Below, in pieces: positions 1,477 through 49,971 of a stretch of 64,000 nucleotides of DNA. The translations under genes and the position numbers were made by a program. The DNA is from a virus, in IMG/VR virus record IMGVR_UViG_3300028800_000006, positions 1 through 64,000 of that record. One strand, given 5' to 3'. The notes under the pieces were generated by a model. That model did no database searches. It had not been told where the DNA came from and worked only from the letters and a program-made list of their open reading frames with translations. Positions within the stretch are counted from its first letter, which is position 1. Each line of letters begins with the position of its first letter.

Positions 1477-1544
1477 GGACACCTCGACGTGTTGGATAAC
1501 TGGCGGAAGAGGCGAGGATGAACCCCGAGCGCGGCGGTGTCAAC

Positions 1545-19311: not shown

Positions 19312-19364
19312 TCGTGACCGAATCACAACGCCGCGTGTGCGAAAGCGTGAAAAGGAGATCCGAC

Positions 19365-19469
19365 GTGCCGAAAGCGAAGAAGACGAAGAAGACCGAGCCC
19401 AAGAAGAAGCGCGGGAAGTGCACCAACTGCCGACGTGTCGGCCACAACAAACGCACCTGCCCGAACTAG
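19365..19469 (+). CDS. 34-aa basic CCHC zinc-knuckle microprotein (not in ORF track)
   Basis: AGGAG RBS, GTG start; MPKAKKTKKTEPKKKRGKCTNCRRVGHNKRTCPN contains CX2CX4HX4C. Confidence 0.72.
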   Translation: MPKAKKTKKTEPKKKRGKCTNCRRVGHNKRTCPN

Positions 19470-19501
19470 TCCCAACCAAACACAAGAAGGAGAAGATCAC
19501 T

Positions 19502-20554: not shown

Positions 20555-20776
20555 ATGGATTTCATTCATCCGGACACGTGGCGACCGATTCGCCAGCTGG
20601 TGCTCGATGCGATTCCAAAAAGCGGAGAGGGCATCACATATCGCGCGCTCTTACGTGCTGTATGCATGGAGACGAGCGACCTGAATAGAGTAGTGGCCAC
20701 GCTGCGCGAGGAGGGCGTGGTCACGGTCATCCACAACGGGGGCGCTCATCTTGTCCAAACGGAGACCACTACATGA
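20555..20776 (+). CDS. Small winged-helix protein
   Basis: AGGAGA RBS; GITYRALL..DLNRVVATLREEGVV. Confidence 0.65.
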   Translation: MDFIHPDTWRPIRQLVLDAIPKSGEGITYRALLRAVCMETSDLNRVVATLREEGVVTVIHNGGAHLVQTETTT

Positions 20777-21507
20777 GCTTTCTCGTTTTCGACATCGAGA
20801 CCATTCCTGACCGCGAGTTGTGGAAGCCGGAGGAGGCGCCCAAGAAGCGCGGTGCTAAAGCAGACGACACGCCGTTCGCTCCGCACTACGCGCACATTCC
20901 CATCGCGATCGGCTTCGCGCTGCTCTCCGATGACCTGGAGCTGCAGACGATGGGCGTGGCCGGCACGATCACATTCGGCACGAATGAGGCGGCCCTGATC
21001 GGCGCCTTCCACACGTTCGCCGCACAGGCTGATCCTGTGCTGGTGACGTACAACGGCCGGGGCTTCGATCTGCCTGTGCTGTCGCTGCGCAGCTTCAGGC
21101 ACGGAATCCCGCAAGGCTGGTACAGCCCCCAGCACCGCAAGCGGTACTCGGAGGAGCGGCACATCGACATCATGGAGCAGTTGACTGAGTACGGAGCCAT
21201 TCCGTTCAAGGGGCTGTCGCTCGATCAGGTGTGCAAGCTCATCGGCCTGCCGGGAAAACTCGGCTTCGACGGCTCGATGGTCGCGGCGGCATTCGCGAAC
21301 GGCAAGGCCAAGGAGATCGAGACGTACTGCAGCCACGACGTCGCGCAGACGACGCTGGTGCTCATGCGCTACATGCTCATGCGGGGGCGCATTTCGGTCG
21401 TGCGCTACCAGCAGGTGGCCGAGGTGTTCCTGAACGCGTGCGGGGGGCGTGGGATGGAATTCGTCGAGAAGGTCGATCGGAAGCGCTTGCTGCTGCAGGA
21501 GGGGTGA
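20773..21507 (+). CDS. PolB-type 3'-5' exonuclease
   Basis: VFDIETIPD, LVTYNGRGFDLPVL, YCSHDV. Confidence 0.9.
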   Translation: MSFLVFDIETIPDRELWKPEEAPKKRGAKADDTPFAPHYAHIPIAIGFALLSDDLELQTMGVAGTITFGTNEAALIGAFHTFAAQADPVLVTYNGRGFDLPVLSLRSFRHGIPQGWYSPQHRKRYSEERHIDIMEQLTEYGAIPFKGLSLDQVCKLIGLPGKLGFDGSMVAAAFANGKAKEIETYCSHDVAQTTLVLMRYMLMRGRISVVRYQQVAEVFLNACGGRGMEFVEKVDRKRLLLQEG

Positions 21508-21735: not shown

Positions 21736-22386
21736 ATGGTAGCCGTCATTGACTTGACCGGTCATAGGTACGGGCGCCTGACTGTGCTAGAGCGCGCTGG
21801 CTCTATTCGGAATAAAGCACGCTGGCGCTGCGTGTGCGCTTGCGGGAAGACTGTTCTTTGCGACAGCAACAGCTTGCGCGAGAAGCACACCACATCCTGC
21901 GGCTGTCGCAGTCGTGAATCGGCACGTGAGCGCCTGCGATCTGCAATGACTCGTCATGGTGAGAACGCTGGAGGAGTACGAACACACGAGTACAAGACAT
22001 GGTGTCGAATGATTGCGCGCTGTGAAGACAAGGAGCGAAAACACTACGGCGCAAAGGGAATCGCTGTTCATCCTGCGTGGCGGTCAGACTTTCTTTGCTT
22101 CCTTGCCTATATCGGGCGTGCGCCGAGCAAGCACCACACGATCGACCGGATTGAAAACGCCAAGGGATACGAGCCCGGAAACGTTCGCTGGGCTACACAG
22201 AAGGAGCAGGGGAGAAACAAAACAAACAACCATCTGCTTACTGTCGGTGGAGAGACCGCGCCGCTCGTCGTTTGGGCTGAGCGTACAGGGCTGACGTTGG
22301 ATGCACTCAGCCACAGACTGCGGCTTGGCTGGTCTCCATTGCGGGCTGTTACAACGCCACGGAGGAGCTATGTTCGACGCAAATGA
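21736..22386 (+). CDS. HNH-type homing endonuclease
   Basis: DLTGHRYGRLTV, WRCVCACG, TTSCGC, TIDRIENAKGYEPGNVRWAT. Confidence 0.88.
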   Translation: MVAVIDLTGHRYGRLTVLERAGSIRNKARWRCVCACGKTVLCDSNSLREKHTTSCGCRSRESARERLRSAMTRHGENAGGVRTHEYKTWCRMIARCEDKERKHYGAKGIAVHPAWRSDFLCFLAYIGRAPSKHHTIDRIENAKGYEPGNVRWATQKEQGRNKTNNHLLTVGGETAPLVVWAERTGLTLDALSHRLRLGWSPLRAVTTPRRSYVRRK

Positions 22387-24814: not shown

Positions 24815-24817
24815 GTC

Positions 24818-25552
24818 ATGTGTGTATTCTGTGAACCGCTTCTTGTTCGTGTGAAGAATCGACGGTGCATCCGCGATCGATTCTGGGACCACGTCAGAAA
24901 GACGAAAAACCACTGGATCTGGACTGGGCAGAGAGATCGAAAGGACTACGGAAGACTGCGCATCAGTGGTGAGCGTCCACGCGTTGTTCTTGCCCACCGA
25001 TTGTCTTGGGCCATCGCACGCGGAGGGTGGCCACCTGACGATCGCCTTGTTTGTCACAAGAACAAATGCAACACGCCACATTGCGTTCGCCCGACGCACT
25101 TGTATCTAGGTACGTACCTGTCCAACAACAGAGATACTGTGGCTATCGGGCATCACCGTCGCGCGGCTCCCGGCGCACGCCACCACAACGCAGTATTGAC
25201 GGCACGGGATGTGCGCCGTCTGTTTGCGCTTTCTTCGGCGGGGGCGCTGCAGCGTGAGCTGGCCGAGCGCTTCGGTGTTAAACAGCAGACGATAGGTGAC
25301 ATTTTGCGGGGGAAGAAGTGGCGGCACTTGGCGAGGCCGTGCTGGTATTCAGATCGACGGACAGGGCGGTACACACTGCGAATCGGAAACCGCACCCTTG
25401 GACGTGTGCGCCGCATTCAGACACACGTGTGGGAGGCACGCGTGTCTGGCCGGGCGTCGACACAGCAAGCGCTGCACAAGGCAAAGCGATCCGTGGAGGC
25501 GTGCACGCGTAAACTGCATGCACATCGTAGCAGCAGAGGAAACACCCTATGA
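24818..25552 (+). CDS. HNH endonuclease with HTH
   Basis: LAHRLSW, VCHKNKCNTPHCVRPTHL..GT..NNRD; QRELAERFGV. Confidence 0.85.
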   Translation: MCVFCEPLLVRVKNRRCIRDRFWDHVRKTKNHWIWTGQRDRKDYGRLRISGERPRVVLAHRLSWAIARGGWPPDDRLVCHKNKCNTPHCVRPTHLYLGTYLSNNRDTVAIGHHRRAAPGARHHNAVLTARDVRRLFALSSAGALQRELAERFGVKQQTIGDILRGKKWRHLARPCWYSDRRTGRYTLRIGNRTLGRVRRIQTHVWEARVSGRASTQQALHKAKRSVEACTRKLHAHRSSRGNTL

Positions 25553-32811: not shown

Positions 32812-32859
32812 CCCCCCGCCCCCGCCGGGCATATGCTCTGTAGCCAAGGAGATCACCAC

Positions 32860-33558
32860 ATGATTCTTGGCAACCACATGATGAACCCGGCGGCGCTGAT
32901 GCGCTCGGGTGGAATCCCCGGCGTGCTGCCGAGCGGACGCAACCTGCGAGCGGGCATCACTAGCGCTTCGGCGCGCATCCACGCGGGCTACCCCTTCCAG
33001 ACCGCCCCGCTGCCGGCCCCGCTGCCGGTCGCCTCGCCTGCGGCCGTGGCGGTCACCCCGGTGGCGACTCCGGGTGGCACTCATGGCGCGTTCTCCGGCG
33101 CCGGTTTCGGGTCGCACGGCGGCGTGCGGTTCGATCCTTACATGATCATGCGCTCGGGCGGAATGCCGGGCATCATGGCCTCGGGCGCGAACATCCGCGG
33201 CGGCGTCCGGAACGTGGGCCCCCACGTGCAGGCGTCCTACCCCTTCCAGACCGCTCCGCTGCCGGCGCCTCTCCCGGTCGCCTCGCCCGCCGCGGTTCCG
33301 GTCGCTCCCGGCGGCACCAAGGGGCTGATGGGCGTGCTGGCGGACCACCTGGGCATTCCCACGCGTCGGCGCCGCCGGCACTGGTTCTTCAACCCGATCA
33401 CCGTCACGGCGCAGAGCCAGGCGGCGAACTGCGAGAAGCTCGGGCCGCGCTCGGACGGTCTCTACGTCACGATCTGCAACGGCCAGGTCACGCAGTACAG
33501 CGACGCGGCTGGCAACGTGCACGCGAGCCCGTACGCGGATCCGAACGCCTACACCTAA
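32860..33558 (+). CDS. Putative virion protein with an internal ~55-aa duplication
   Basis: TTGACC-N18-TATGCT promoter, AGGAG RBS; two copies of MRSGG.PG...YPFQTAPLPAPLPVASPAAV. Confidence 0.75.
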   Translation: MILGNHMMNPAALMRSGGIPGVLPSGRNLRAGITSASARIHAGYPFQTAPLPAPLPVASPAAVAVTPVATPGGTHGAFSGAGFGSHGGVRFDPYMIMRSGGMPGIMASGANIRGGVRNVGPHVQASYPFQTAPLPAPLPVASPAAVPVAPGGTKGLMGVLADHLGIPTRRRRRHWFFNPITVTAQSQAANCEKLGPRSDGLYVTICNGQVTQYSDAAGNVHASPYADPNAYT

Positions 33559-33564
33559 AGCACC

Positions 33565-34008
33565 GTGCGCCGGTCCCTGTATCCAAACCCGGACGCGGTT
33601 CCGTACGCGTCCACGCAGCCGGCAGGATTCCCGTGTCAGATGACGACACAGAGTCCTGCCCGGCTGTATCCGTTGCATCATCACGGTGCGTGGCTGAACG
33701 CGGAAGGCACCGGCAACACCGATCTCTCCTCCGGGCACTTCCACCGTGTGATCGAAGGCCGGGTGCAGCCGGACCTGTCAGACGGGCACACGCACGAGCT
33801 GACGCGGCTGCCGTGTGGGTGGGGAGCGCCCCACGTTCCGGGGCAGCACGACATCACCGGCATGTCGCTGCTCGGCGACGGCGCTCCTCCTGTGCCAGCC
33901 CCGATGAGCGTTCAGGCACCGCCGATGTGGCCGTGGGTGGTGGGCGCGGTGATGGTCGTCGGCCTGGTCGTCGGCGGCGTCTTTCTCCTGCGGAGCGATG
34001 CCGAATGA
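33565..34008 (+). CDS. His-motif protein with C-terminal membrane anchor
   Basis: GHFH...GHTH; WPWVVGAVMVVGLVVGGVFLL. Confidence 0.75.
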   Translation: MRRSLYPNPDAVPYASTQPAGFPCQMTTQSPARLYPLHHHGAWLNAEGTGNTDLSSGHFHRVIEGRVQPDLSDGHTHELTRLPCGWGAPHVPGQHDITGMSLLGDGAPPVPAPMSVQAPPMWPWVVGAVMVVGLVVGGVFLLRSDAE

Positions 34009-34406
34009 CCAGAGCCCAGGTGAACCTGTGGGTGAGCCGCGCGAACCGGCTCATGAAGGACGGAGATTGTGCTGCCGCGCAGACCGCCGTGGCACAGGCG
34101 TGGCAGGCGCTCGGGCAGTATTCGGCGATGCTGGCGCGGCAGGGGGCATCGAACGGGACCGCGATCTACCTGCACAAGACGATCGCTCGCCTGCAGACGA
34201 AGCTCGCGCGGCAGTGCCGGGTCGATCCGGATGCGCTCGCGCCAGCCTACCAGGCGGCGTCCGATCCTGACGCGCTCGCCCCGATGCATGGCACGGGTGA
34301 CGTGATCTTCGACAGCCTCACCACGACGCTGACGACGCTCGGGATCATCGGTGCGATTTTCGGGCTCGGGTACGGCATCTACATCACGTACAAGCGGAGC
34401 ACGTAG
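34005..34406 (+). CDS. Helical protein with C-terminal membrane anchor
   Basis: MTRAQ..KDGDC; LGIIGAIFGLGYGIYITYKR. Confidence 0.75.
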   Translation: MTRAQVNLWVSRANRLMKDGDCAAAQTAVAQAWQALGQYSAMLARQGASNGTAIYLHKTIARLQTKLARQCRVDPDALAPAYQAASDPDALAPMHGTGDVIFDSLTTTLTTLGIIGAIFGLGYGIYITYKRST

Positions 34407-34567
34407 TGACGCGGGCGCCCGCCAAGCCCGGCTCGTTCCTGTACCACGGCGGGATGGTCTTCGAGGTCGACAACTGCGGGAAGCGCCGGCCGCGCAAGGA
34501 CATCGGTCCGGGCACGCGCGGCAAGTTCAAGCCCAAGTTCTACACAGGGAAGGCGTGCAAGCGCTAA
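34406..34567 (+). CDS. 53-aa basic microprotein
   Basis: Manual translation MTRAPAKPGSFLYHGGMVFEVDNCGKRR...ACKR; coupled to previous stop. Confidence 0.55.
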   Translation: MTRAPAKPGSFLYHGGMVFEVDNCGKRRPRKDIGPGTRGKFKPKFYTGKACKR

Positions 34568-34782
34568 CCGATGCGCCGGCAGGCGCTCTGCCGGCAGAGC
34601 AGGACGCCAGTCGTCATCTCGCGGCCCGGCGACGTCTTCGACCGGCGAACGCTCTCGACCTTCGACCCCTGGCAGGCCCCCGTGGCGGCGCGGCTCTTCG
34701 AGCTGGCGAGGCGGACGGCTGACTTCAGCTTGCGCAGGTACTTCACCCCGCTGCACCACGTGACCTTGTAGATCTTCTTCAT
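34564..34782 (-). CDS. Small basic protein
   Basis: K/R-rich, four Cys; coupled operon. Confidence 0.55.
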   Translation of the reverse strand: MKKIYKVTWCSGVKYLRKLKSAVRLASSKSRAATGACQGSKVESVRRSKTSPGREMTTGVLLCRQSACRRIG

Positions 34783-35090
34783 GTGGCGCTCGCCGGCTGG
34801 GCTGATGGCCAGCCCTCGGTGTCAATGACCGTCCGGCCCCCGCCACCCGCGCCGTTCCGCAGCGCCTGCACGAGCGCCTGGATGCGCGGCCCGTCGTAGC
34901 CCGAGGCGATGACGATGATCGCCGGCTGCCCGGCTGCCATCACTCGGCGCACGACCATCTCGGCGCCGTCGGGACCACTCAGCGCCTTGGCCTTCGCACG
35001 GGCGAACAGCTCGGCGATGGTGTACCGCTTCCACCACGCGATCAGGCCGATCGCGCTTACACCGAGACCAACAGCGAATGGGTGCTTCAT
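34779..35090 (-). CDS. N-terminally membrane-anchored protein
   Basis: MKHPFAVGLGVSAIGLIAWWKR. Confidence 0.65.
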   Translation of the reverse strand: MKHPFAVGLGVSAIGLIAWWKRYTIAELFARAKAKALSGPDGAEMVVRRVMAAGQPAIIVIASGYDGPRIQALVQALRNGAGGGGRTVIDTEGWPSAQPASAT

Positions 35091-35092
35091 GT

Positions 35093-35329
35093 TCAACGTC
35101 TCCGACGTGCGCGTCCAAGAGGGACTCGTCGCACACGGCGCAGCGGACGGTCCAGCTCGGCGCAGCCCCGCATCAGCGTTGCCTTCACCCGGCGTGCCTT
35201 GGCCACCGTGAGCGGTGCGAATAGGCCCTGAATAGCGTTGAGGGCGTACCCGGTGCGCTTGGAATAAAGAACGGCGTCGATCTTGCCCTGGCGGACACGT
35301 TCGAACCGCACTGTGCACCTGGCTGCCAT
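35093..35329 (-). CDS. Small Arg-rich protein
   Basis: Ends PLGRARRRR; TTGCGC-N18-TACGAT upstream. Confidence 0.6.
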   Translation of the reverse strand: MAARCTVRFERVRQGKIDAVLYSKRTGYALNAIQGLFAPLTVAKARRVKATLMRGCAELDRPLRRVRRVPLGRARRRR

Positions 35330-35397
35330 GGTGCTCAGGATCGTACCCCAGCCCCCTGTGCTCGCGCAAACCGGGTGGCCCGTGATACGCTCTCGCT

Positions 35398-35955
35398 GTG
35401 CCTGGGATCGAGGTCTACACCATCAGCGGCGCCGCGTCCGGATATGATCCGACGACCGGCATGCCGCTCGAAGGCAAGCTGGTGCCGGTGACGTCGTCAC
35501 CGCCCGCGGCCCAGCTCCAGAACGCGCTCAAGGCGCTCGGGACCACGAATGGAGACCCGGCACTCGCCTCGTTGACCGTGGACGGCATCATCGGCCCGAA
35601 CACCGTCAAGGCCGTGAACCGCGCCCTGGCCACGTACGTGGGAGCCACCGCGGCGTTCCCGACGGCGAACCTCGACGTGACCCGCGTGCGTCAGTACGCC
35701 GGAGCGCTCGCGTCGCTGATCTCCGATCGCGTGAAGAAGAGCGGCGGCACCGTTCCCCCGGTCGTGGTGCACCACCCCGTGAAACGCACCCCAGCGCTCC
35801 CGAGCCTGCCCGTCGCGATTCCGACGTCCATGACCGCTAGCGTGTTCGACAACCAGAAGTGGATCTGGTGGGTGGTCGGCGGTGTGGGCGCCCTGGCCGT
35901 GCTGACCGCGGCGGCCTCTGCTGTGAAGACGCGAAAGGCTGCTGCGAATGGCTGA
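35398..35955 (+). CDS. Peptidoglycan-binding-domain protein with C-terminal membrane anchor
   Basis: LQNALKALG..LTVDGIIGPNTVKAV; WIWWVVGGVGALAVL then basic tail. Confidence 0.8.
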   Translation: MPGIEVYTISGAASGYDPTTGMPLEGKLVPVTSSPPAAQLQNALKALGTTNGDPALASLTVDGIIGPNTVKAVNRALATYVGATAAFPTANLDVTRVRQYAGALASLISDRVKKSGGTVPPVVVHHPVKRTPALPSLPVAIPTSMTASVFDNQKWIWWVVGGVGALAVLTAAASAVKTRKAAANG

Positions 35956-36334
35956 TCTGACTCTGTTCAACGGGAAGGTGCCCGCGAGCTACACGCCATC
36001 GAAAGGCATTCAGATCACCGCGCGGAGGGTCACTCTGCGATTTGCGGTCACGGTGACGGGCGCGCCGACTACTGTGCAGTGGTACCTGGAGTTCAGTGGC
36101 GACGCACAGACGTGGTTCCGCGAGACTGCTGAGGAGGATCAGGGCGGTGGCGCCGTGAGCATGCCAGCCGTGGTGCGTACTCTGCAGTATGTCGACGGCA
36201 CCGACCTTCCTGTTGGCACTACCAAGCTCAGCTTGCAGTTCATCCGCGACGAGCAGCTCGTGCGGGTGCAGTTGGCGTGTGCAGGAACGGCGACTGTGAA
36301 GCTGACGACGCCGTATGGCGAGCAGCCGTTCTAG
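35948..36334 (+). CDS. Beta-rich small protein, possible jelly-roll virion protein
   Basis: Alternating hydrophobic strands throughout 128 aa. Confidence 0.6.
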   Translation: MADLTLFNGKVPASYTPSKGIQITARRVTLRFAVTVTGAPTTVQWYLEFSGDAQTWFRETAEEDQGGGAVSMPAVVRTLQYVDGTDLPVGTTKLSLQFIRDEQLVRVQLACAGTATVKLTTPYGEQPF

Positions 36335-37539
36335 GTGGCCTTCGCTGCTTCAGCCACTGCGTGCTCCAGCCGCGCAGCGTAAACAGGGGCGTAGTCAGGC
36401 TCGCTGTCGATCCCGATGAACCGTCGGGACTCGTGGATCGCAGCAACCCCGGTTGAGCCTGAGCCCATGAACGGGTCTAGCACCGTGCCGCTCACAGGTG
36501 TAACAAGCCGCACGAGCCAGCGCATGAGCGCGATTGCTTTCACGGTCGGGTGGTGATTGGCGCGGGCAGAGGAGCGGCCGGCGCCCGCACGTGCGCTCTG
36601 GATGCCTGCGGAGTTTTCGTCACGGTTGGTGATCTCGGTCGAGGCGCGCATGGGCAGGTGGGCGAGCCCTGCTTCACGCTCTTTTGTGCTCGGCTTCGCG
36701 CAGTAGAAGAAGCGGGCGGCGCCGCCGGAGTCGCCATAGAAGATCTGCGGTGACCCTTCTGCGCGGCTCTCTGCACCGAGCGCGCGAGGCGCACTGCCTT
36801 TCGCTGATTTGCGCTTGATTGTGTCCTTGCCACTCTTCAGCAATCCGCTCTGTGTGTTTAGTAACAGCACGGGGCAGCCTGGCATGCATTCAGCGTCTTC
36901 ACACCAGTCGGTGTGGGAGAGAACAAGATTGGCAGGCCAGCGGCCATCTTCGGTTGTGCCCGCTGCACGTGATCCCGCAAGTCCAGCTCCGTACAGGCGC
37001 CCTGTGCGTCCGGTTGGCTCACGCGCGGGCCGCACCTCACACGCGATGCTGCACGCTTCGATATTTAGCCCGCCCGTGCCGTGCGCAGCGACGTTTCCCG
37101 TCGTTGTACCGTCACACGGCTTACGCACGAGGATCCAATTCTCGCTCGCAGGCTTCAGCGCTGTGCCTCGCCCCTCACCAACGTTCAATGACTTCGGAAA
37201 CCCTGTGCCGAAGTGGTGCGTGACGACGTCGCGGATCTCGAACCCTGCGTCTTCGAGCGCTGTCGCCGTCCAGTGGGACGTGCGCGGAATGGCCCACACG
37301 AGCCCATGCGCCCCAGGCTTCAGCACGCGCCGCGCTTCCGTCATCACGCCGCGCATCCAAGCAATCCAGGCATCACGGCCGCCTTTATCGTGGTCCCAGT
37401 CTTTGTTCATGAAGCCGATCCCTGCCGGAGGATCCGTTACCAACGAGTCGACGTGATCGGCCGGCATCATCGTCATCACCTCGACGCAATCACCAGCCGC
37501 GAGGATGTATTTGGGATGCGTGGTGAACGTCGGTGCCAT
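36331..37539 (-). CDS. N6A/N4C DNA methyltransferase, beta class
   Basis: VTDPPAG, HPTVK, VLDPFMGSGSTG. Confidence 0.92.
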   Translation of the reverse strand: MAPTFTTHPKYILAAGDCVEVMTMMPADHVDSLVTDPPAGIGFMNKDWDHDKGGRDAWIAWMRGVMTEARRVLKPGAHGLVWAIPRTSHWTATALEDAGFEIRDVVTHHFGTGFPKSLNVGEGRGTALKPASENWILVRKPCDGTTTGNVAAHGTGGLNIEACSIACEVRPAREPTGRTGRLYGAGLAGSRAAGTTEDGRWPANLVLSHTDWCEDAECMPGCPVLLLNTQSGLLKSGKDTIKRKSAKGSAPRALGAESRAEGSPQIFYGDSGGAARFFYCAKPSTKEREAGLAHLPMRASTEITNRDENSAGIQSARAGAGRSSARANHHPTVKAIALMRWLVRLVTPVSGTVLDPFMGSGSTGVAAIHESRRFIGIDSEPDYAPVYAARLEHAVAEAAKAT

Positions 37540-37541
37540 GG

Positions 37542-37557
37542 TGCCAGTTAACTAGCA
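37542..37557. promoter_or_regulatory. Operator copy 2 (TGCCAGTTAACTAGCA)
   Basis: 2 nt upstream of the methyltransferase ATG. Confidence 0.65.
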
Positions 37558-37600
37558 CGGTTGCTAGAACGCTAGCAAGTAGGCTACCCTCCCCTCCCAC

Positions 37601-38056
37601 ATGCCGCTCAGGCCGCTACTCGTCGTCACCGGCTCCATCCACGTCGAGGGGGGAGATACGCACACCGTGCGGCAGAAGGGGTCGAGCAAGAACGGCGCCC
37701 ACATCTCGATCGATCACACGCGGAAGATCACAGCGGACCGGCGTGAAGCGAACGTGGTGTCGACAGGGTACATGCGCCGCCTGGCGCGTCTCCGTCTGCT
37801 GAAGACGCCCTATGGCAGCCTCGTGGACCCGGAGAAGCTCCCATTGGTGAAGGAGCTGCTGGCCAGTGCAACGCGGGACGTCGGCACGTTTAATACTGAG
37901 CATGCCGGAGGCACTGCCAGGCTCGCGAATTGCCTGGTGTGGGAGCATCTGAAGGGCAACCGGCTCGCCGCGGTGGAGGGTTGGCTTGCCCGGCAGATGC
38001 ATGACTCGGTCCCGGATGCCGTGTCGGCCGCCCCGACGCTATTCTTGGCGACTTGA
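37601..38056 (+). CDS. Hypothetical protein
   Basis: ORF after TTGCTA-N18-TACCCT. Confidence 0.65.
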   Translation: MPLRPLLVVTGSIHVEGGDTHTVRQKGSSKNGAHISIDHTRKITADRREANVVSTGYMRRLARLRLLKTPYGSLVDPEKLPLVKELLASATRDVGTFNTEHAGGTARLANCLVWEHLKGNRLAAVEGWLARQMHDSVPDAVSAAPTLFLAT

Positions 38057-38088
38057 CCGTGCCGCCGCACCGGGCCTATCCTCTCACC

Positions 38089-38583
38089 ATGGATTCGCAA
38101 AGCCCCGCGCTCGGAACGATGCTGCAGCAACTGGCGCCGCAGTGGATGGGCATCATGAACGCGATTCAGCCGCTGATCGATCAGCCGCTGATTCGGTACC
38201 CGTACAACATGCCCTTGGCGCAGTCGCAGGTGATCAATCCCGGCGCGACCGTGAACCTGACGCCCACCGATTTCCAGTATTCCTTCGAGTGGCCGTTCGA
38301 GGTGCGCGAGATCGCGTTCTCGAATGACCCCTCGCACACGTTCCGGGACTGGCGCGTTGCGATTCTCGACCAGACGTTCAACCAGCCGTGGCAGAAGGGC
38401 ATTGCGGGCACGCTGGTGTCGACGCTGATCGACAAGAACACGGACAAGTATTGCCTGAAGTTCCCGTGGGTGGTTCGGCCGAAGGGCGGCGGTCTCTCGA
38501 TCGCCGTGACGAACCTCGACACCGTCAACCCGATCACGGTCGACATCAACTTCATCGGCAGCCAGCTGATCCCGCGCTCGTAA
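38089..38583 (+). CDS. Putative single jelly-roll capsid-type protein
   Basis: Eight-strand-like pattern: DFQYSFEWPFEVREIAF / WRVAILD / YCLKFPWVV / LSIAVTN / ITVDINFIG; own promoter TTGACC-N18-TATCCT. Confidence 0.55.
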   Translation: MDSQSPALGTMLQQLAPQWMGIMNAIQPLIDQPLIRYPYNMPLAQSQVINPGATVNLTPTDFQYSFEWPFEVREIAFSNDPSHTFRDWRVAILDQTFNQPWQKGIAGTLVSTLIDKNTDKYCLKFPWVVRPKGGGLSIAVTNLDTVNPITVDINFIGSQLIPRS

Positions 38584-38590
38584 GGTCTGA

Positions 38591-38983
38591 ATGGCTGGCC
38601 CCTTCCAGAGTGCCCGAGCCACGCCGTCGTTTTCTCCGGCGCCGAACTCGGAACCGACCGGCGCGCTTTCGGGCGTTCCTCCACGCACGCTGCACATGCG
38701 GCGCGACGTCACGAACAAAGCGATGCAGATCGTTCTCGGTACGCCTGAGAACCGCGTCGTGGTTCTGACGGCGCCATTCGTTGGGTACACGATCTGGATT
38801 GGAGATTCGAGCGTGCTGCCCCAGAACGGGCTGGCGCTCACCCCCGGGCTCGCCTACACGACAGGTCTCATGGGGCTCCAGGATCTCTACGCGGTGACGG
38901 ATGCTCCGGACCCTGTGAAGATCTCACTGCAGATCCAGGTGTCGATCGTGCTGATGGCCGAGCGCCAGCGGATCGTGGGATAG
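38591..38983 (+). CDS. Beta-rich protein, possible penton or minor capsid protein
   Basis: NRVVVL..IWIGDSSV...GLALTPG..DLYAV pattern. Confidence 0.55.
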   Translation: MAGPFQSARATPSFSPAPNSEPTGALSGVPPRTLHMRRDVTNKAMQIVLGTPENRVVVLTAPFVGYTIWIGDSSVLPQNGLALTPGLAYTTGLMGLQDLYAVTDAPDPVKISLQIQVSIVLMAERQRIVG

Positions 38984-38986
38984 CGT

Positions 38987-39562
38987 GTGTTTCCGTTGCT
39001 TCTGCTCGGGGTCGCCGGAGTCGTTGCAGCTGCAGTAGGGCTGACCGGCGGACCGAACCTCGCCCGCGCGGCCGTTGCGCTGAAGCAGCCGCTCGCGTAC
39101 GTGGGTAGCGCCTCGAAGTGGGCCAAGAAGCGGGGCCTGCCGCTCGACTGGGTCTTGACCACGATCTTGGTCGAGTCGAACGGCAATCCACGAGCGGCTG
39201 GCGACTCCGATGGCCGCTCGGTCGGCCTCATGCAGGTGAACGCTGTGGCACACGCGGCCGAGCTGAAGGCAGCCGGGCTCTCGCGCGAAAGCCTGTTCGA
39301 CCCGGAGACGAACATCGAATGGGGCACGAAGTATCTCGTGCAGTTTCGAGATGACGTGCAGGCTGCACTCGGTGGCCGCTCCCTGCCCGCGCCGCTCGAC
39401 GAGTTGGTGCGCCTCTCGTACAAGGGCCCGGCGGCTGTGACTGGAGCGCTGAAGCGAGGGCAGAACCCGGTGACGACGCTTTCCTGGGCGCCTGCAGCCA
39501 TCGCGAACTGGCGACAGCGGCGGTCACAGGTGCTGGCGGCACTCCGCCCGAGCGTGAGTTGA
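38987..39562 (+). CDS. Lytic transglycosylase (SLT) with N-terminal membrane anchor
   Basis: ILVESNGNPRA, SVGLMQV, FDPETNIEWGTKYL. Confidence 0.9.
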   Translation: MFPLLLLGVAGVVAAAVGLTGGPNLARAAVALKQPLAYVGSASKWAKKRGLPLDWVLTTILVESNGNPRAAGDSDGRSVGLMQVNAVAHAAELKAAGLSRESLFDPETNIEWGTKYLVQFRDDVQAALGGRSLPAPLDELVRLSYKGPAAVTGALKRGQNPVTTLSWAPAAIANWRQRRSQVLAALRPSVS

Positions 39563-39595
39563 CCCGCCCACGCCGCGCGGCGTATCCTGGACGGC

Positions 39596-40045
39596 ATGAT
39601 CTCGCGGACCTACGTGGTGTTGATGCCCTCGGGCGGGGAGGCGGCCACACCCGTCAACATCCCCGTGCAGGATGATCCCGGCCTGCCCACCGCGCCAGCC
39701 ACCCAAGGCAGCGCGGCCTGGTTCGAGTGGCGCGGGCGCCCGCTGCGCTTCGAGACAGTAGCAGGGGATCCTGGATTCGTTCCGCGGCTGCGGCTCGGCT
39801 TTGGATTCAGTATCGTGCCATTGGTGTCGCTTGCGACGCCTATCTCGACGGTGGTTCCGTCCGTCGCGTTTTCGGAGTCGCTCGTGCAGGACATGAGCAT
39901 CCTCACGGTGCCAGTGCTCGCCGATCCAAGTGGGATGCCGGCGATTCAGCTCACCGGGAGCAGCAGCACCGCCGGGCACACGTACCTCGTGACGCTTCAG
40001 ATCATGGAAGCCAAGGACGAGGACCGCACGGCCGAGGGGACGTAG
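39596..40045 (+). CDS. Beta-rich hypothetical protein
   Basis: TTGACC-N18-TATCCT 7 nt before ATG. Confidence 0.65.
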   Translation: MISRTYVVLMPSGGEAATPVNIPVQDDPGLPTAPATQGSAAWFEWRGRPLRFETVAGDPGFVPRLRLGFGFSIVPLVSLATPISTVVPSVAFSESLVQDMSILTVPVLADPSGMPAIQLTGSSSTAGHTYLVTLQIMEAKDEDRTAEGT

Positions 40046-40049
40046 GCTG

Positions 40050-40277
40050 ATGGCGAAGGCAAACTATCGCGTCTGTTGGTGGTACAGCAACGACACGCAG
40101 TCGCTCAACCCCACGTGCCGCACGCTGTCTGGAAAGCAGCACAAGTCGCGCCGTGAGGCGGCAGAAACAGCGCTCATGCAGAACCCTCATGCGCTTGTGC
40201 GCGTGCGGGGAACAGCAGGAAGAGCACACGGCACCGAGTACCGCTTGATCAAGGGAAAAGTGAGGCGGGTCGGATGA
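40050..40277 (+). CDS. Small basic protein
   Basis: Coupled ORF. Confidence 0.6.
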   Translation: MAKANYRVCWWYSNDTQSLNPTCRTLSGKQHKSRREAAETALMQNPHALVRVRGTAGRAHGTEYRLIKGKVRRVG

Positions 40278-40723
40278 TCACCCGTCAGCTCGGCGCCGGC
40301 TACGCGATCGTCCCCGTCCCGCCCGTGCCCGACTGGAACACGAGCGCTGGCGGCGGCCCCATCAGCCGGTCGTCGCAATCGTCTGTGCCAGCCGGCGCCG
40401 GCAACTACGTGTGGCGCAGCCCGCTCAACGTCGTGCGCGAGGCGGAGCCCGGCGCGGGCTGGTGGCAGGATCTCGCGGCCACGAAGATGTTCCTGCCCGA
40501 CGGCCGGCTCGTGGACGCGAAGCCGTTTGCCTACGACCAGTTCCGCGGCGGCCCGGACATCATCCAGCCGATCGTGACTCAGTCGTCTCGCCTGCTCTCG
40601 CCGTCGTTCGTGGCGATGTGCCTGGGCGCAGCCGCCGGGTACAAGCTGTCTCGCGACAATCACGTGCTGCACGCGGTCGGCGGCGCGATCGTCGGAGGCT
40701 TGCTCGGGCGCGTGTTCGGGTGA
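40274..40723 (+). CDS. Protein with C-terminal Gly-rich membrane helices
   Basis: FVAMCLGAAAGY...AVGGAIVGGLLG. Confidence 0.75.
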   Translation: MITRQLGAGYAIVPVPPVPDWNTSAGGGPISRSSQSSVPAGAGNYVWRSPLNVVREAEPGAGWWQDLAATKMFLPDGRLVDAKPFAYDQFRGGPDIIQPIVTQSSRLLSPSFVAMCLGAAAGYKLSRDNHVLHAVGGAIVGGLLGRVFG

Positions 40724-41067
40724 GCGCCGTGGCGGAGATTGTCACGGTCGTGTGTGACACCAAGGACGGACGTGCTACACGTGTCGAGCGGCGCATGCGC
40801 GACGTGCTTGGCGACGAGGGAATCGACTGGATTCTTGGATCGCACGATCCGAAAAGTACAGACGCTACGGCGCTCCTCGCAGCTAACGCGCTGGCCCGTG
40901 ACCGGCTGGTTGGCGAAGGCTTTACGGGAGCTACTGGCGCCGCTCTCCCGTTTTTGCCCGGACGGCCATACACCGCAGAGAGCGCAAGCACGAGATGCTG
41001 CGCCTGCGAAAGGTTGATGCCCGTGTCAGCCGGTGAGCACGTCACGGAGCCTGCCCATGCCACTTGA
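40720..41067 (+). CDS. EGxxW-family paralog 8 with C-terminal extension
   Basis: DEGIDWILGSHDPKSTDATALLAANAL. Confidence 0.75.
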   Translation: MSAVAEIVTVVCDTKDGRATRVERRMRDVLGDEGIDWILGSHDPKSTDATALLAANALARDRLVGEGFTGATGAALPFLPGRPYTAESASTRCCACERLMPVSAGEHVTEPAHAT

Positions 41068-41839
41068 TGCAAACGAAAAAGCGCTGATCATGAAGCGCCG
41101 AGCCGCTGCAGGCTGGGACGCGCCTAGCGGCGTTCCCGATGGCCGCTACCGTGTCGGCCCTGGGGGCAAGCTCAGGCGGGTGAACCTCGGTGTGGCAGAT
41201 CAAGCACAGGATCTGCTCGCGAACATGCGCGTGAACTGGCAGGCACGCGGTGTGCTTGGGATCATCGCTGACAAGATCCATCAAGGGTATGCGGTCGCCG
41301 AGACGTTCCCGTGGTCAGCTTCATCCCACCTATGGCAGTCGCTTCCAGATGTTGTGCGAGGTGTCCAGACACCGAAAGAGGCGGCGATTGATCTGCTGAA
41401 TCAAGCGAACACCTACGCGCAGAAGATCTACGCGACGATTCCAAACGACAGCGCGCCTGTGTCAGCGCAGACACGCCGGACTGTCACAATTGCCGTGAAA
41501 AACGCGACGAAGGCGGTGAAGCTCGTTTCCAGCGCGGCTAACGATCTGAACGCGAGCATGCTGCGCGAGATCCTGGAATATCTGGCGCAGAAAACGAAAG
41601 AGGCGGCCGATTACCTCGCGAACAAGGCGAAGGACAAGTTCGGCTTCGACATCCCAAAGCCGATCATCTACGCGACACTGGCGTTGCTGGGTGTCACGAC
41701 GCTGTTTATCGCCGCCAAGCTCGTGCACACTGTGGTGCTGGGCCGGGCAAGGCTGGCTGAGGCGGAGGAAGAGGCGATCCAGATCGCAGACTCTTCTCGG
41801 CGCAAGAAGGCTTCGCGGAAGGTCGCCACGATTTCGTAG
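41057..41839 (+). CDS. Helical protein with C-terminal membrane anchor
   Basis: IIYATLALLGVTTLFIAA then basic tail. Confidence 0.75.
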   Translation: MPLDANEKALIMKRRAAAGWDAPSGVPDGRYRVGPGGKLRRVNLGVADQAQDLLANMRVNWQARGVLGIIADKIHQGYAVAETFPWSASSHLWQSLPDVVRGVQTPKEAAIDLLNQANTYAQKIYATIPNDSAPVSAQTRRTVTIAVKNATKAVKLVSSAANDLNASMLREILEYLAQKTKEAADYLANKAKDKFGFDIPKPIIYATLALLGVTTLFIAAKLVHTVVLGRARLAEAEEEAIQIADSSRRKKASRKVATIS

Positions 41840-41847
41840 GAGATCAC

Positions 41848-42261
41848 ATGGTTTCAGTCACCAACACGAATCTAGGCTTCTCGATCACTTCGGCGATCAA
41901 GAGCGTCGGCAAGACCGCGATCAAGGCGCAGGGGGCTGTGTTCAAGGCGACTGGTGTGGCCTCGAAGATCCCGGGCGTGTCTCAGGGAGCGAACGCGATC
42001 GTGCCAGGCTCCGGACGGATCCTCTCGGCCGGCGGCCAGCTCGACTCGATCGTGGGCGACAAGCTCTTGAGTGTGGGGAGCGGCAGCGGGGGCACGACGA
42101 CAGCGACTGCTGTTGATCCTGGAACGGGCGGCGATCCTGGTGTGCCAGCGCAGCCGGGGAAGCGCGGCGGCTCGAAGCAGCTCATCAAGGGTGTGCCGAA
42201 CACGACGTTGGCCATCGCAGGCGGCGGGCTCCTGGTGCTGCTTCTCGTGCTGAAGCGGTAG
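41848..42261 (+). CDS. Gly-rich protein with C-terminal membrane anchor
   Basis: AGGAG RBS; NLGFSI leader; LAIAGGGLLVLLLVLKR. Confidence 0.8.
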   Translation: MVSVTNTNLGFSITSAIKSVGKTAIKAQGAVFKATGVASKIPGVSQGANAIVPGSGRILSAGGQLDSIVGDKLLSVGSGSGGTTTATAVDPGTGGDPGVPAQPGKRGGSKQLIKGVPNTTLAIAGGGLLVLLLVLKR

Positions 42262-42300
42262 GGGTTTGCTGCCAGACGACTGGCGTTCTACACTCGTGGA

Positions 42301-42474
42301 ATGACCGGACAGCCGAAATCGAACGCAGGAACCATCGCGGCCGTGATCGGCGGCCTCGCGGCCGTAGGCGGGCTCGTCGCCGCGGGTGTGGCTTCGTCGA
42401 GGAAGCCGGCGCCGCGCCTGGGCGGAGTGCGGCGGCCGGGGCTCGTTAAGAAGCCGTGCGGGTGTGGGCGGTGA
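42301..42474 (+). CDS. 57-aa membrane microprotein ending PCGCGR (not in ORF track)
   Basis: MTGQPKSNAGTIAAVIGGLAAVGGLVAAGVASSRKPAPRLGGVRRPGLVKKPCGCGR; TTGCTG-N17-TACACT 6 nt before ATG. Confidence 0.7.
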   Translation: MTGQPKSNAGTIAAVIGGLAAVGGLVAAGVASSRKPAPRLGGVRRPGLVKKPCGCGR

Positions 42475-42674
42475 CGGCAGCGCAGCGCAAGGAGGCTGCT
42501 CGGCTTGCACACGCTGTGCGGAAGATGGCGCGTGAGGGCGATTGCGGGCACGCATCCAATCTCGTCTACATCATGAGGAAGAAAGGGCTCGTCAGCCCTC
42601 GCCTAGAGAACGCTCTCCACCGCGTTGTTGGCCTGTGCGGCGTACGCGCTCGGGGCTGGCCAACAGACTTCTAA
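42471..42674 (+). CDS. Small helical protein resembling the N-terminus of 34005-34406
   Basis: MTAAQ...REGDC versus MTRAQ...KDGDC. Confidence 0.6.
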   Translation: MTAAQRKEAARLAHAVRKMAREGDCGHASNLVYIMRKKGLVSPRLENALHRVVGLCGVRARGWPTDF

Positions 42675-42680
42675 AGCTAA

Positions 42681-42854
42681 TCATCGCCGCCAGTGAACCG
42701 GCCCGCCCATCCAACTGAACAGGATCACCAGCAGAACAATCAGCAGCACGACGTGCAGTAGGTTGTTCCCCCGCACCGCAGGCGGCCCGGCCCAGTAGCC
42801 TCCGCCCCAACCGGCAAACACCACGAGCAGGATGATGAGTAGAGGCCACGGCAT
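42681..42854 (-). CDS. DUF3309-like two-helix membrane protein
   Basis: LLIILLVVFAGWGGGYW...LLHVVLLIVLLVILF. Confidence 0.7.
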   Translation of the reverse strand: MPWPLLIILLVVFAGWGGGYWAGPPAVRGNNLLHVVLLIVLLVILFSWMGGPVHWRR

Positions 42855-43122
42855 GGACTCCAGGCTGAGTACGATGGTGCCGGTAAGCAAGTACACGTGG
42901 GTGGGGCTGACCGATTGGCCTGAAAAGCCGAACAGCACAGTGTGCTTATGTAGCAGCGCCGTTCATGGACGGGACGAACACGAGGGGATTCTGTGGATTC
43001 GTGGAGTGCACACCGAAGCCACTGAGGACGGCCGTGCGCTACTGGCCGCATACGCGCTGTCTGATTTGGAGGCGCCGCTCCTGCCGATCAGCGATCCGCG
43101 GCTTGCTTCAGCAGCTCTTTGA
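42853..43122 (+). CDS. EGxxW-family paralog 9 (start uncertain)
   Basis: HEGILWIRGVHTEATEDGRALLAAYAL. Confidence 0.7.
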   Translation: MDSRLSTMVPVSKYTWVGLTDWPEKPNSTVCLCSSAVHGRDEHEGILWIRGVHTEATEDGRALLAAYALSDLEAPLLPISDPRLASAAL

Positions 43123-43372
43123 TCGCTGCGTTCCCGAGCGCGCCGACGAACCGCTTCAGCCGGCCCTGCTTGTCCATCACGATCGTGGTCGGCGTGGCCT
43201 TCACCCCGAGCTTGTCGCCGAAGTGCGCGGCCTTGGTGTCCTGCTGCACGTCGTAGATGCCGATCGGGATCACGCGGCGATACGGCCCGGCCAGCTCCTT
43301 GAACCGCGGCAGGTACTCCTCGCAGGCGCCACAGCCGTGCATCGCGAAGACGAAGACTGCAGGGTTCGCCAC
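43088..43372 (-). CDS. Thioredoxin-like protein
   Basis: FAMHGCGAC, GVKATPT. Confidence 0.85.
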   Translation of the reverse strand: MANPAVFVFAMHGCGACEEYLPRFKELAGPYRRVIPIGIYDVQQDTKAAHFGDKLGVKATPTTIVMDKQGRLKRFVGALGNAAIKELLKQAADR

Positions 43373-43374
43373 GG

Positions 43375-43653
43375 CTACGGCTTCCGGCAAGCCTCGAACG
43401 ACCGCCCAGCGGCGCTCATGAGCTGGCGGCCGGCGAAGTAGAGCGCGCCCGCGCCAAGCAGCGACACGATGCCGGCCGCGCCGCGCCCCTTCAGCAGCTT
43501 GTACGTGCCGAAGAGCGCCACAGGCACGCTCGACAGACCTGTGACAGCGCCAGTGACGAGCAGAGGGCGAGCTTGCTCGGCGCACTCGATGTCGGTCGTG
43601 GACGGCGCGGCACCCAGGTAGTCGGAACCGCTCAGTGTGTAGATCTCGGCCAT
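43375..43653 (-). CDS. Small membrane protein
   Basis: MAEIYTLSGSDYLG leader, two hydrophobic helices flanked by Cys; TATCCT 6 nt before ATG. Confidence 0.7.
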   Translation of the reverse strand: MAEIYTLSGSDYLGAAPSTTDIECAEQARPLLVTGAVTGLSSVPVALFGTYKLLKGRGAAGIVSLLGAGALYFAGRQLMSAAGRSFEACRKP

Positions 43654-46638: not shown

Positions 46639-47016
46639 ATGGCGGCCGTTCCGCTCATCGATCCGTGGTTTGACGCTGCGTTTCTGCGCGAGACGACAGC
46701 GAGAAGCACATCCTGCGCTGATCCAGCGACGATCCAGGGTGCCGATGGACTGTTCCTATGGTGCCCCTGTGGCTACGGCAAGCCGGAATTCCCACTCGCG
46801 GGAGGGCGCCCACACGGCCTGCACGTGTCGTTCTCCAATCCGATCGGCGCACAGCCGGCGCCGCCTGATGCCGGCTCGCAGTCCCGGAACGGTGGCCCGT
46901 CGCGCTGGCAGATGAGTGGCACGGGGCTCGCCGACCTGACCCTGGCCCCATCGATCGCGACCGGAGAGCCGGAGTGCTGGCACGGCTACATCCAGAACGG
47001 ACAGGTGCTCTTGTGA
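46639..47016 (+). CDS. DUF6527-like protein
   Basis: FLWCPC...LTLAPSI...CWHGYIQNG. Confidence 0.7.
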   Translation: MAAVPLIDPWFDAAFLRETTARSTSCADPATIQGADGLFLWCPCGYGKPEFPLAGGRPHGLHVSFSNPIGAQPAPPDAGSQSRNGGPSRWQMSGTGLADLTLAPSIATGEPECWHGYIQNGQVLL

Positions 47017-47672
47017 CCCTCCCCGCTGACCGCGCCAAAGGTATCGACGTCAACGGCTGGCATCCCATCCACGACTTCTCTGCCCTCCCTGCCGACTTGA
47101 GCTTCGTGGGGGTCAAGGCCACTGAGGGCAACACGGTCACCGACAAGGCGTTACAGGCCCACCGAGATGGCCTCCGGGCGCGTCCTGGGCTCGATCTGGT
47201 CATCTATTACCATTTCGCCCGGACGGGCCGCCCAGAGACGCAGGCTGTGCGCCTCCTGGATGCTGTGGGACCTCTCCAGGCGAACGAACGGCTGTGCCTG
47301 GACCTGGAGGTGCTCCCAGACGACCCAGGAAGCGTCCTGGCGTGGGTGGACGCGTTCTACGGGCGGATCCGGCGGTCCTGTCCGGGGCAGCGGCAGCTCA
47401 TCTACACTTCGAAGCGGATCTGGAGCCAGTTCGGCAACCCCGGGTGGGCAGGTGCGGCCGACATCGACCTGTGGGCGCCGCGGTACAACGCGGTAGGGCG
47501 TGAGCCCGAGCTGCCGGCGCCGTGGACGCGCTGGACGGCTTGGCAGTGGACAGATGGGGAGGCGGTGCCGTTCACCTGCCCGGGAGTGGGGGCGTGCGAC
47601 GCGAACGTCTGGAACGGCGATCGAGCCGCGGTCAGGGCGTGGGTGGCCGGGAAGTCACTTCTTCAGGGCTAA
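47013..47672 (+). CDS. GH25 muramidase (endolysin)
   Basis: GIDVNGWH, VKATEG, YYHFA, LDLE, WQWT, CDAN. Confidence 0.92.
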   Translation: MTLPADRAKGIDVNGWHPIHDFSALPADLSFVGVKATEGNTVTDKALQAHRDGLRARPGLDLVIYYHFARTGRPETQAVRLLDAVGPLQANERLCLDLEVLPDDPGSVLAWVDAFYGRIRRSCPGQRQLIYTSKRIWSQFGNPGWAGAADIDLWAPRYNAVGREPELPAPWTRWTAWQWTDGEAVPFTCPGVGACDANVWNGDRAAVRAWVAGKSLLQG

Positions 47673-49239: not shown

Positions 49240-49971
49240 TTAGGTGTCCTCATCAAACGCGCGGTTCACCTTGGCCCGCGCTTCGTCGGTGGTGTGCATG
49301 TACCCGAACGTCGTCGCCAGCGCTGCGTGACCGACGCGCTCTTGAATGGCTGGCGGCGGCGTCCCTTTGTTCAGCATGTGCGTGACCGCGCTGTGCCGCA
49401 GGATGTGCGGGAAGTGGAACTCGGAGGGGATGCCAGCGGCTGTGAACACCGCGACCACGAGGTGCCGAACCTCGTGTCGGGTCATCCCCCAGCGCTTCCC
49501 GCTCGCGTGGCAGTGAGGGCAGGGGGCCAGCCGAGACTCACTGGCGCCGCCCCGTTTCCGCTTCTTGACGGTGAGCGCTCCCTTGCCGGCACAGGGGTAG
49601 CAGTCGCCAGGTCGCGCCGATGGGAACACGTAGCCGTGCTGTGCAGCCTCGACGAACGTGCGCTTCGGCAGCCAGGCGCGGAGGGCCTCGCGGCAGGCGT
49701 TCGCGAGCGGCTGTGGTTCAGGTTCGAGGCCGCCTTTCAAATGGGTCAACATCACGGTGCCGTTGTGCAGATCCACGTCGGTGATGCGTGCACAGCCGGG
49801 CTCGCTGGCGCGACTGCCGTTTGTGAAGAGCCATTCGATCATCGCGTGCGCGAGGGGGCTGTGGGCGCGAGCGGCAGCGCGGATCTTCTGCAGATCGCCA
49901 GCACCGAGCACAGCGCGCTTTTTGCGGACCTTTTGGGGTTTGCGGGTCATCCGCGGCTCAGGCGCTGCCAC
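49240..49971 (-). CDS. Tyrosine recombinase, catalytic domain only, with zinc-ribbon insertion
   Basis: GSRASE (R), LKGG (K), HILRH, VGH..TTFGY; insert CYPCAGKG...CPHCHASG. Confidence 0.9.
   Translation of the reverse strand: MAAPEPRMTRKPQKVRKKRAVLGAGDLQKIRAAARAHSPLAHAMIEWLFTNGSRASEPGCARITDVDLHNGTVMLTHLKGGLEPEPQPLANACREALRAWLPKRTFVEAAQHGYVFPSARPGDCYPCAGKGALTVKKRKRGGASESRLAPCPHCHASGKRWGMTRHEVRHLVVAVFTAAGIPSEFHFPHILRHSAVTHMLNKGTPPPAIQERVGHAALATTFGYMHTTDEARAKVNRAFDEDT

Follow-up and report, generated by a model that had tools for sequence, protein, structure and literature searches.

A candidate virion module of a probable non-tailed, single-jelly-roll virus in a complete 103-kb genome

The stretch of DNA analyzed here (the window, bases 1-64000 of IMG/VR virus record IMGVR_UViG_3300028800_000006) belongs to a complete genome of 102,927 bp, which ends in a 127-bp direct terminal repeat (CheckV completeness 100%; GC content approximately 64%; no tRNA gene in the 64-kb window). 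It probably carries about half of the virion module of a non-tailed double-stranded DNA virus of a soil bacterium, in which a shell of single-jelly-roll proteins would overlie a membrane. The gene content suggests an internal membrane, an icosahedral shell and packaging without a motor. Coordinates above 64000 are genome coordinates, numbered continuously with the window.

Genes were called from third-position GC content (GC3), their translations were read, and transmembrane (TM) segments were identified by hydropathy scan. PHROGs and Pfam scans covered approximately 70 open reading frames (ORFs), among them every ORF of at least 250 amino acids (aa) over 103 kb but three: 19178-20446 and 20773-21507 in the replication module, and the methyltransferase-like 36331-37539(-). 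Each ORF was compared by tblastn with five related genomes of 89-121 kb, hereafter the close relatives. Megablast of 20 kb against GenBank phages gave no match, and a literature search found no paper describing the clade.

Predicted jelly-roll proteins and the divided virion module

The best candidate for the main coat protein is a 262-aa protein encoded beyond the window (76928-77716(-)). It is the most conserved protein in the comparison with the five close relatives (66-83% identity), and its GC3 of 0.92 is among the genome's highest. The model is all-beta, a single jelly roll, and its best structural match is the coat protein of SPV1; Foldseek against BFVD gave weak matches to circovirus-type capsids only.

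The second predicted jelly-roll protein, of 164 aa, is encoded within the window (38089-38583(+)) and has homologues in 121 clusters, none below 50% identity and none with a name, on contigs as long as 128 kb. Its AlphaFold2 model (48-sequence alignment, pLDDT 88.6) comprises an N-terminal helix (residues 6-30) followed by an eight-stranded beta sandwich in the form of a single jelly roll. The top Foldseek matches are viral jelly-roll coats (BMV, PRD1 P3 and HHIV-2, E ~3e-3), and after re-ranking of the top 1000 chains the first seven all belong to icosahedral viruses with an internal membrane (Z scores of 8.9 for HHIV-2, 8.6 for SH1, 8.4 for PR772, 8.3 for SPV1, 8.3 and 8.2 for STIV, and 8.1 for HCIV-1). 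A point that weighs against a capsid role is that peptidylglycine monooxygenase comes next at 8.0, the margin of capsids over unrelated jelly rolls being less than one Z unit. The 164-aa protein is thus predicted to be a jelly roll, with a ranking that favours capsid proteins. An earlier interpretation made without database searches (the sequence-only reading) had described four beta-rich proteins in the block, encoded from 35948, 38089, 38591 and 39596, and had looked to the first three for a jelly-roll fold; the fold was found in the 38089 product, the one of the four for which a structure was predicted. Both predicted models are single barrels, and where they match PRD1 P3 or PBCV-1 the match is limited to one barrel. 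Neither the 164-aa nor the 262-aa family matched anything in PDB, PHROGs or Pfam in sequence and profile searches, even with a profile reaching 20% identity, and hhalign detected no homology among three small families, including that of the 130-aa protein described below.

The arrangement of the genes in related genomes joins the two proteins. The 262-aa gene is upstream of the 164-aa gene in all five close relatives and directly adjacent to it in three; in the relative G005 the two genes occupy 23720-24508 and 24628-25125. A 164-aa homologue is located 0.1-2.5 kb downstream of the 262-aa gene on the same strand in six of seven close relatives and at least ten of 19 distant ones. A 130-aa conserved protein (38591-38983(+); 39 homologue clusters, no PHROG or Pfam family match), whose gene is always directly 3' of the 164-aa gene (5/5 close relatives), is a further candidate for a shell or vertex protein. 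In relatives the whole module forms one contiguous block of approximately 11 kb, in the order protease, small proteins, peptidoglycan-binding anchored protein, TM proteins, 262-aa protein, 164-aa protein, 130-aa protein, SLT transglycosylase, two 149-aa proteins, 268-aa protein and 57-aa TM protein. Since the 262-aa gene lies directly upstream of the 164-aa gene there, the block has evidently been split in two in the present genome, into halves at 38.0-42.5 kb (+) and 76.9-89.2 kb (-).

The 164-aa protein is most likely a vertex (penton) protein or a second coat protein, and looks more penton-like than major-coat-like. In HHIV-2 and HCIV-1, whose 27 coat subunits are labelled A-Z and a, the penton protein VP9 is a single barrel with an N-terminal helix of approximately 34 residues that touches the membrane, and residues 1-40 are disordered in HHIV-2 (PMC6414509). 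Chain b spans residues 39-173 and is therefore, we infer, most likely VP9; its layout agrees with that of the 164-aa model. The shell would accordingly be pictured as built from single-jelly-roll proteins with the 262-aa protein as the main coat, while the N-terminal helix of the 164-aa protein, as a vertex protein like VP9 of HCIV-1 and HHIV-2 or as a second coat protein, could reach the underlying membrane.

The same proteins might instead be surface, matrix or fibre components of a non-tailed virus of some other undescribed architecture, whether pleomorphic, enveloped or non-icosahedral. This seems unlikely: in the rankings for both models, capsid or vertex proteins from icosahedral viruses with a membrane come first, and a conserved pair of jelly-roll genes, the larger one highly conserved, is a coat-protein pattern.

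Genes of tailed phages and packaging ATPases

No PHROG or Pfam family of terminase, portal, HK97 capsid, tube, tape-measure or baseplate proteins was found in the scanned ORFs of the whole 103 kb. The sequence-only reading had reported the lack of terminase, portal, HK97 capsid, tape-measure and baseplate genes for the window, and had named terminase, portal and HK97 capsid genes elsewhere on the contig as evidence against a tailless virus; the remaining 39 kb (scanned ORFs of at least 250 aa) proved equally devoid of them, and terminase and HK97 capsid are missing from the related genomes as well. Six-frame searches of 20-25 such genomes (77-221 kb, 13 of them at least 90% complete) detected none of the large terminase (TerL) families PF03237 (Terminase_6N), PF03354 (TerL_ATPase) and PF04466 (Terminase_3), with positive controls. 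The HK97 Phage_capsid family (PF05065) was absent from 20 genomes in six frames, with controls that score, although ORFs without a predicted fold could still hide one, and Phage_portal (PF04860) was absent from the five genomes tested, again with positive controls. The sole 'terminase' match among PHROGs (phrog_2666) is a HerA-like ATPase (6410-8134), and the sole 'tail' matches lie in the collagen-repeat (Gly-rich) region of three fibre proteins. In a distant complete relative of 85 kb (G008), seven of ten large ORFs scanned belong to replication, partition or glycosyltransferase families, and three have no match.

Large terminases are normally easy to detect, and these uniformly negative searches, in up to 25 genomes in which the controls score, make it very improbable that the genome is that of an extremely divergent tailed phage whose HK97-fold capsid, portal and terminase lie beyond detection by hidden Markov models, and whose jelly rolls are cement, decoration or receptor-binding parts. 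The record is classed as a virus in IMG/VR, which such a phage would satisfy, and several conserved ORFs have no predicted structure, but above approximately 330 aa there remains no conserved, unassigned globular ORF that could be a portal or terminase. The fold match lists do include jelly-roll components of tailed viruses (cement, turret and fibre parts); the most conserved protein, the 262-aa product, is nevertheless all-beta and not HK97-like. Likewise, three collagen-like proteins match PHROG 'tail fiber' families, but the matches are confined to the Gly-rich repeats.

The A32/FtsK-type packaging ATPase for which the sequence-only reading had suggested inspecting the contig did not materialize: FtsK_SpoIIIE (PF01580) and Pox_A32 (PF04665) are absent from five genomes, and the HerA-like P-loop ATPase (6410-8134(+); weak match to PF01935, phrog_2666 at 2.8e-14, HerA structures at E ~2e-4) is present in only six of 20 relatives. 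Its only homologue among GenBank phages (37% identity) is encoded in the replication region of a tailed phage (MW202482) that possesses its own terminase and portal. This ATPase was ruled out as an A32-type packaging motor on both grounds, its accessory distribution and its homologue in a tailed phage with a terminase. An AAA+ (MoxR/CobS-like) ATPase (93986-95332) was also rejected as a motor, because it belongs to the wrong class of ATPase and occurs in seven of 19 relatives. As far as sequence comparison can tell, no packaging ATPase is conserved across the clade; SPV1 likewise has none (PMC8812541). Given this lack, Arg-tailed basic proteins would probably condense the DNA and the particle would close around it as it assembles, the mode put forward for SPV1, with no pumping of the DNA; this is the weakest step of the scheme. 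Two adjoining small basic proteins are encoded at 80208-80845(+), with isoelectric points above 11 and C-terminal runs of 4-6 Arg; these Arg-tailed proteins are possible candidates for DNA condensation and may be core proteins.

Membrane proteins of the virion block and other genes

The hydropathy scan of 32.8-43.7 kb identified seven clear single-TM proteins and two weaker ones (39596-40045 and 40274-40723). The anchors are mostly C-terminal, and a Lys/Arg-rich tail follows several of them, which bears out the small membrane-anchored proteins, several with basic tails, that had been recognized from the sequence alone. Across the two halves of the virion block, genes for TM proteins are more frequent (13/38) than elsewhere (16/103; Fisher p=0.02). 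In the proposed particle the small tail-anchored and multi-pass membrane proteins would populate an internal lipid vesicle that would serve as the base for shell assembly.

The first protein encoded in the 32.8-43.7-kb stretch is one of 241 aa (32833-33558(+), GC3 0.87, 3/5 close relatives) that has two internal repeats of approximately 100 aa, followed by an RRRRR patch and a Cys-containing C-terminal domain. Next are two proteins with a C-terminal TM anchor, one of 147 aa (33565-34008(+), 4/5 relatives) and one of 133 aa that is helical (34005-34406(+), recognized from the GC3 frame plot and translation). The 185-aa protein encoded at 35398-35955(+) (5/5 relatives) has its C-terminal TM segment at residues 158-176, as the sequence-only reading had it; the peptidoglycan-binding domain assigned in the same reading is a weak motif, the match to PF01471 being sub-threshold (E=9e-4, 19.8 bits against a cut-off of 23 bits). 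A paralogue of this protein is encoded beyond the window (84785-85369(-)). Conserved proteins of 128 aa (35948-36334(+), 37-45% identity) and 151 aa (37601-38056(+)) are found in all five relatives without a PHROG or Pfam family match. Between them lies a DNA methyltransferase-like ORF (36331-37539(-), motifs read by eye, 2/5 relatives), which, like the thioredoxin gene at 43088-43399(-), is an unrelated gene within the block.

Downstream of the 130-aa gene, a lytic transglycosylase (38987-39562(+)) combines an SLT domain (PF01464, E=1e-13) with an N-terminal TM helix (residues 1-19), as had been read from the sequence, and is present in all seven close relatives searched. It is probably a virion-borne wall-cutting enzyme for entry. 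This enzyme and the anchored peptidoglycan-binding proteins would be virion components that breach the cell wall during entry, like P7 of PRD1. It is followed by a conserved 149-aa protein with a weaker TM candidate (39596-40045(+), 5/5 relatives, no PHROG or Pfam family match) and another 149-aa protein with a C-terminal glycine-zipper membrane segment (40274-40723(+), weak match to PF13488, GC3 0.91, 4/5 relatives). The block continues with a 268-aa protein that has a TM helix at residues 210-228 and a basic C-terminal tail (41033-41839(+), syntenic in 3/5 relatives), a 137-aa Gly/Ser-rich protein with a C-terminal TM anchor found by the hydropathy scan (41848-42261(+)), and a 57-aa single-TM protein with a basic tail (42301-42474(+), syntenic in 3/5 relatives at 60-66% identity). 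The thioredoxin-like protein (43088-43399(-), PF13098/PF00085, E ~1e-7) has a CGAC motif and is found in all five close and three of four distant relatives.

The second half of the module encodes, besides the 262-aa protein, a 171-aa membrane protein (77841-78356(-)), a 216-aa protein (78548-79198(-)), a small TM protein (79940-80191(+)), the peptidoglycan-binding anchored paralogue and, at the head of the block, a transglutaminase-like protease-fold protein with an intein (495-aa ORF, 85995-87482(-), weak Pfam hits for the intein). The tblastn matches of the protease in relatives are much shorter than the 495-aa ORF, which would fit intein-less genes there. This transglutaminase-fold cysteine protease may process virion proteins.

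A 117-aa multi-pass membrane protein with a CPAC motif (2265-2618(+)) is the product of a clade-wide core gene (4/5 close and 4/4 distant relatives). Adjoining this gene in relatives is that of a 724-aa protein without PHROG or Pfam match (4/5 relatives), of which the first 494 aa are encoded at 1-1482(-) and the rest in frame across the terminal-repeat junction to 102108 (102800 down to 102108). The 724-aa protein consists of a globular N-terminal domain, a long coiled coil, a Pro/Gln/Ala-rich linker, a basic patch and a conserved C-terminal domain with an acidic tail, and is a candidate scaffold or size-ruler; its coiled coil and low-complexity sequence ruled it out as a portal or terminase. 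A 602-aa ORF (68362-70170) was discarded as a core gene, having no matches, a poor Atlas model and a counterpart in one of the five relatives.

A 651-aa protein with an N-terminal TM segment at residues 8-26 (59156-61111(-)) is probably a right-handed beta-helix, a lead to a depolymerase or spike (ESM Atlas feature score of 0.95 to Beta_helix clusters). Three collagen-like fibre proteins match PHROG 'tail fiber': one of 832 aa (61882-64000(-) in the window, continuing to 64380; match in the Gly-rich repeats) and two of 1018 and 1231 aa (64505-67561(-) and 72347-76042(-)). Host recognition might be accomplished by these fibres and the beta-helix protein. The three fibre proteins, rich in Gly, Thr and Ala, are encoded close to glycosyltransferase and methyltransferase genes (43.7-46.6 kb and 55.8-58.8 kb) and are possibly glycosylated.

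The replication genes include a PolA (22301-24814(+)) with an N-terminal domain of the uracil-DNA-glycosylase superfamily, two primase-like genes, SNF2 and Dda-type helicases, an exonuclease and a Sak4-like gene. Nucleotide and DNA modification are represented by a ThyX-like thymidylate synthase and a DpdA/TGT-like enzyme; the gene for the latter, DpdA/queuine-tRNA-ribosyltransferase-like (11881-12693(-), phrog_1279, 1e-71), suggests 7-deazaguanine DNA modification. The scans also identified a sigma factor, glycosyltransferases, HNH endonucleases and an endolysin (46974-47672). A conserved set of four genes (90459-95332(-)) comprises a small ORF and the genes for the AAA+ (MoxR/CobS-like) ATPase, an approximately 390-aa phrog_1314 'HNH endonuclease' and a DUF6744 protein; synteny of the set is maintained in the relative G001, and its members occur in three to four of the five close relatives. 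All five close relatives retain a tyrosine recombinase (49240-49971(-)), which may act in resolving genome dimers or in integration.

Two of the five close relatives are without most of the replication genes of the present genome. The proteins shared with four complete distant genomes are the 262-aa protein, the transglutaminase-like protease, the 117-aa membrane protein, thioredoxin, PolA and the SNF2 helicase, and the virion genes are therefore taken to be the stable core. The replication and DNA-modification genes resemble those of large tailed phages and differ from one relative to another. That the genome is a plasmid or other non-viral mobile element misclassified as a virus is scarcely credible, even with the tyrosine recombinase in all five relatives, a ParB-like gene in one relative and the presence of one relative in the bin of a metagenome-assembled genome, because the genome encodes a complete replication set of phage type together with an endolysin, fibres, a sigma factor and HNH endonucleases, no conjugation genes turned up in the family scans, and genome size is consistent among the relatives, which also have terminal repeats.

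Relation to known viruses and significance

Among known groups, Portogloboviridae and Helvetiavirae (realm Singelaviria) come closest, rather than the double-jelly-roll Varidnaviria; no sequence or profile similarity to Portogloboviridae or Helvetiavirae was detected. Portogloboviridae (SPV1, PDB 6OJ0) are the most similar in build, with a single-jelly-roll coat (here a predicted one) and no packaging ATPase. The SPV1 genome is circular and approximately 20 kb in size. SPV1 differs in having an archaeal host and in sharing no sequence similarity, whereas the present virus has a bacterial host, a genome of 103 kb (77-221 kb in relatives) and at least two different jelly-roll genes, which are paired.

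The Helvetiavirae (Sphaerolipoviridae SH1, HHIV-2 and HCIV-1; Simuloviridae; Thermus phages P23-77 and IN93) resemble the present virus in encoding many membrane proteins and in two features that are predicted here, jelly-roll genes in pairs and a penton whose helix contacts the membrane, but possess a conserved FtsK-HerA packaging ATPase beside the coat genes, and none is conserved here. The present genome is three to six times the size of those of Simuloviridae (16-19 kb, PMC12642351) and Sphaerolipoviridae (approximately 30 kb, PMC12643093). Since 2025, Helvetiavirae have been placed in the realm Singelaviria, apart from Varidnaviria (PMC12714852).

Tectiviridae (PRD1, PR772) and other double-jelly-roll prokaryotic viruses likewise lack a tail, contain an internal membrane and carry a transglycosylase in the virion, features of which the membrane and virion location are here deduced from genes, and PRD1 P3 is among the Foldseek and VIA matches. 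Tectivirus genomes are approximately 15 kb. Unlike in these viruses, no coat protein of double-jelly-roll size and no A32/P9-type ATPase were found here. The large tailless jelly-roll membrane virus with a tailed-phage-style toolkit that the sequence-only reading proposed is thus supported, but its assignment to a Varidnaviria type was too specific, because the nearest structures are single-jelly-roll proteins of SPV1 and sphaerolipoviruses and the latter stand outside Varidnaviria; moreover, the best coat candidate (76928-77716) lies outside the block on which that reading was based. SSIP-1, another bacterial tailless membrane phage, has coat proteins of two types and next to no similarity to database sequences (PMC6356626); no SSIP-1 match was obtained when a phage collection was searched by tblastn with the 164-aa protein and the HerA-like ATPase, the presence of SSIP-1 in that collection not having been checked.

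An IMG/VR scan with the 262-aa alignment recovered 26 contigs, the longest of 221 kb; with three exceptions they are larger than 69 kb, and many have terminal repeats. Among GTDB species-representative genomes the sole match, at 75% identity, is a 107.8-kb contig (DASZFS010000280.1, 107,832 bp) binned with a Vicinamibacterales (Acidobacteriota) metagenome-assembled genome, which is either a lead to the host or a binning artefact. The nearest Atlas clusters of the beta-helix protein (59156-61111) are mostly from Acidobacteriota, another lead. The family is common in soil and sediment metagenomes (more than 120 clusters at 50% identity) and unannotated everywhere, and current virus surveys therefore mislabel or overlook it.

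To our knowledge, large genomes among prokaryotic viruses have been regarded as the preserve of tailed phages. The tailless membrane jelly-roll viruses of bacteria and archaea whose sizes were checked range from 16 to approximately 30 kb (PMC12642351, PMC12643093), and complete genomes of 77-221 kb on jelly-roll coats, if confirmed, would overturn this size limit. They would also raise the question of how DNA enters a particle without a terminase, portal or conserved packaging ATPase, and would add a bacterial branch beside SPV1 and the helvetiaviruses that bears on the origin of jelly-roll capsids. More tentatively, these viruses might constitute an undescribed, possibly realm-level lineage of bacterial viruses with genomes from 77 to more than 220 kb, in which tailless, membrane-lined single-jelly-roll shells enclose more than 100 kb of DNA without an ATP-driven motor, Arg-rich proteins condensing it. 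Such a motor-free lineage, if real, would represent a third independent route to large viral genomes, beside those of the tailed phages and of the giant double-jelly-roll viruses of eukaryotes.

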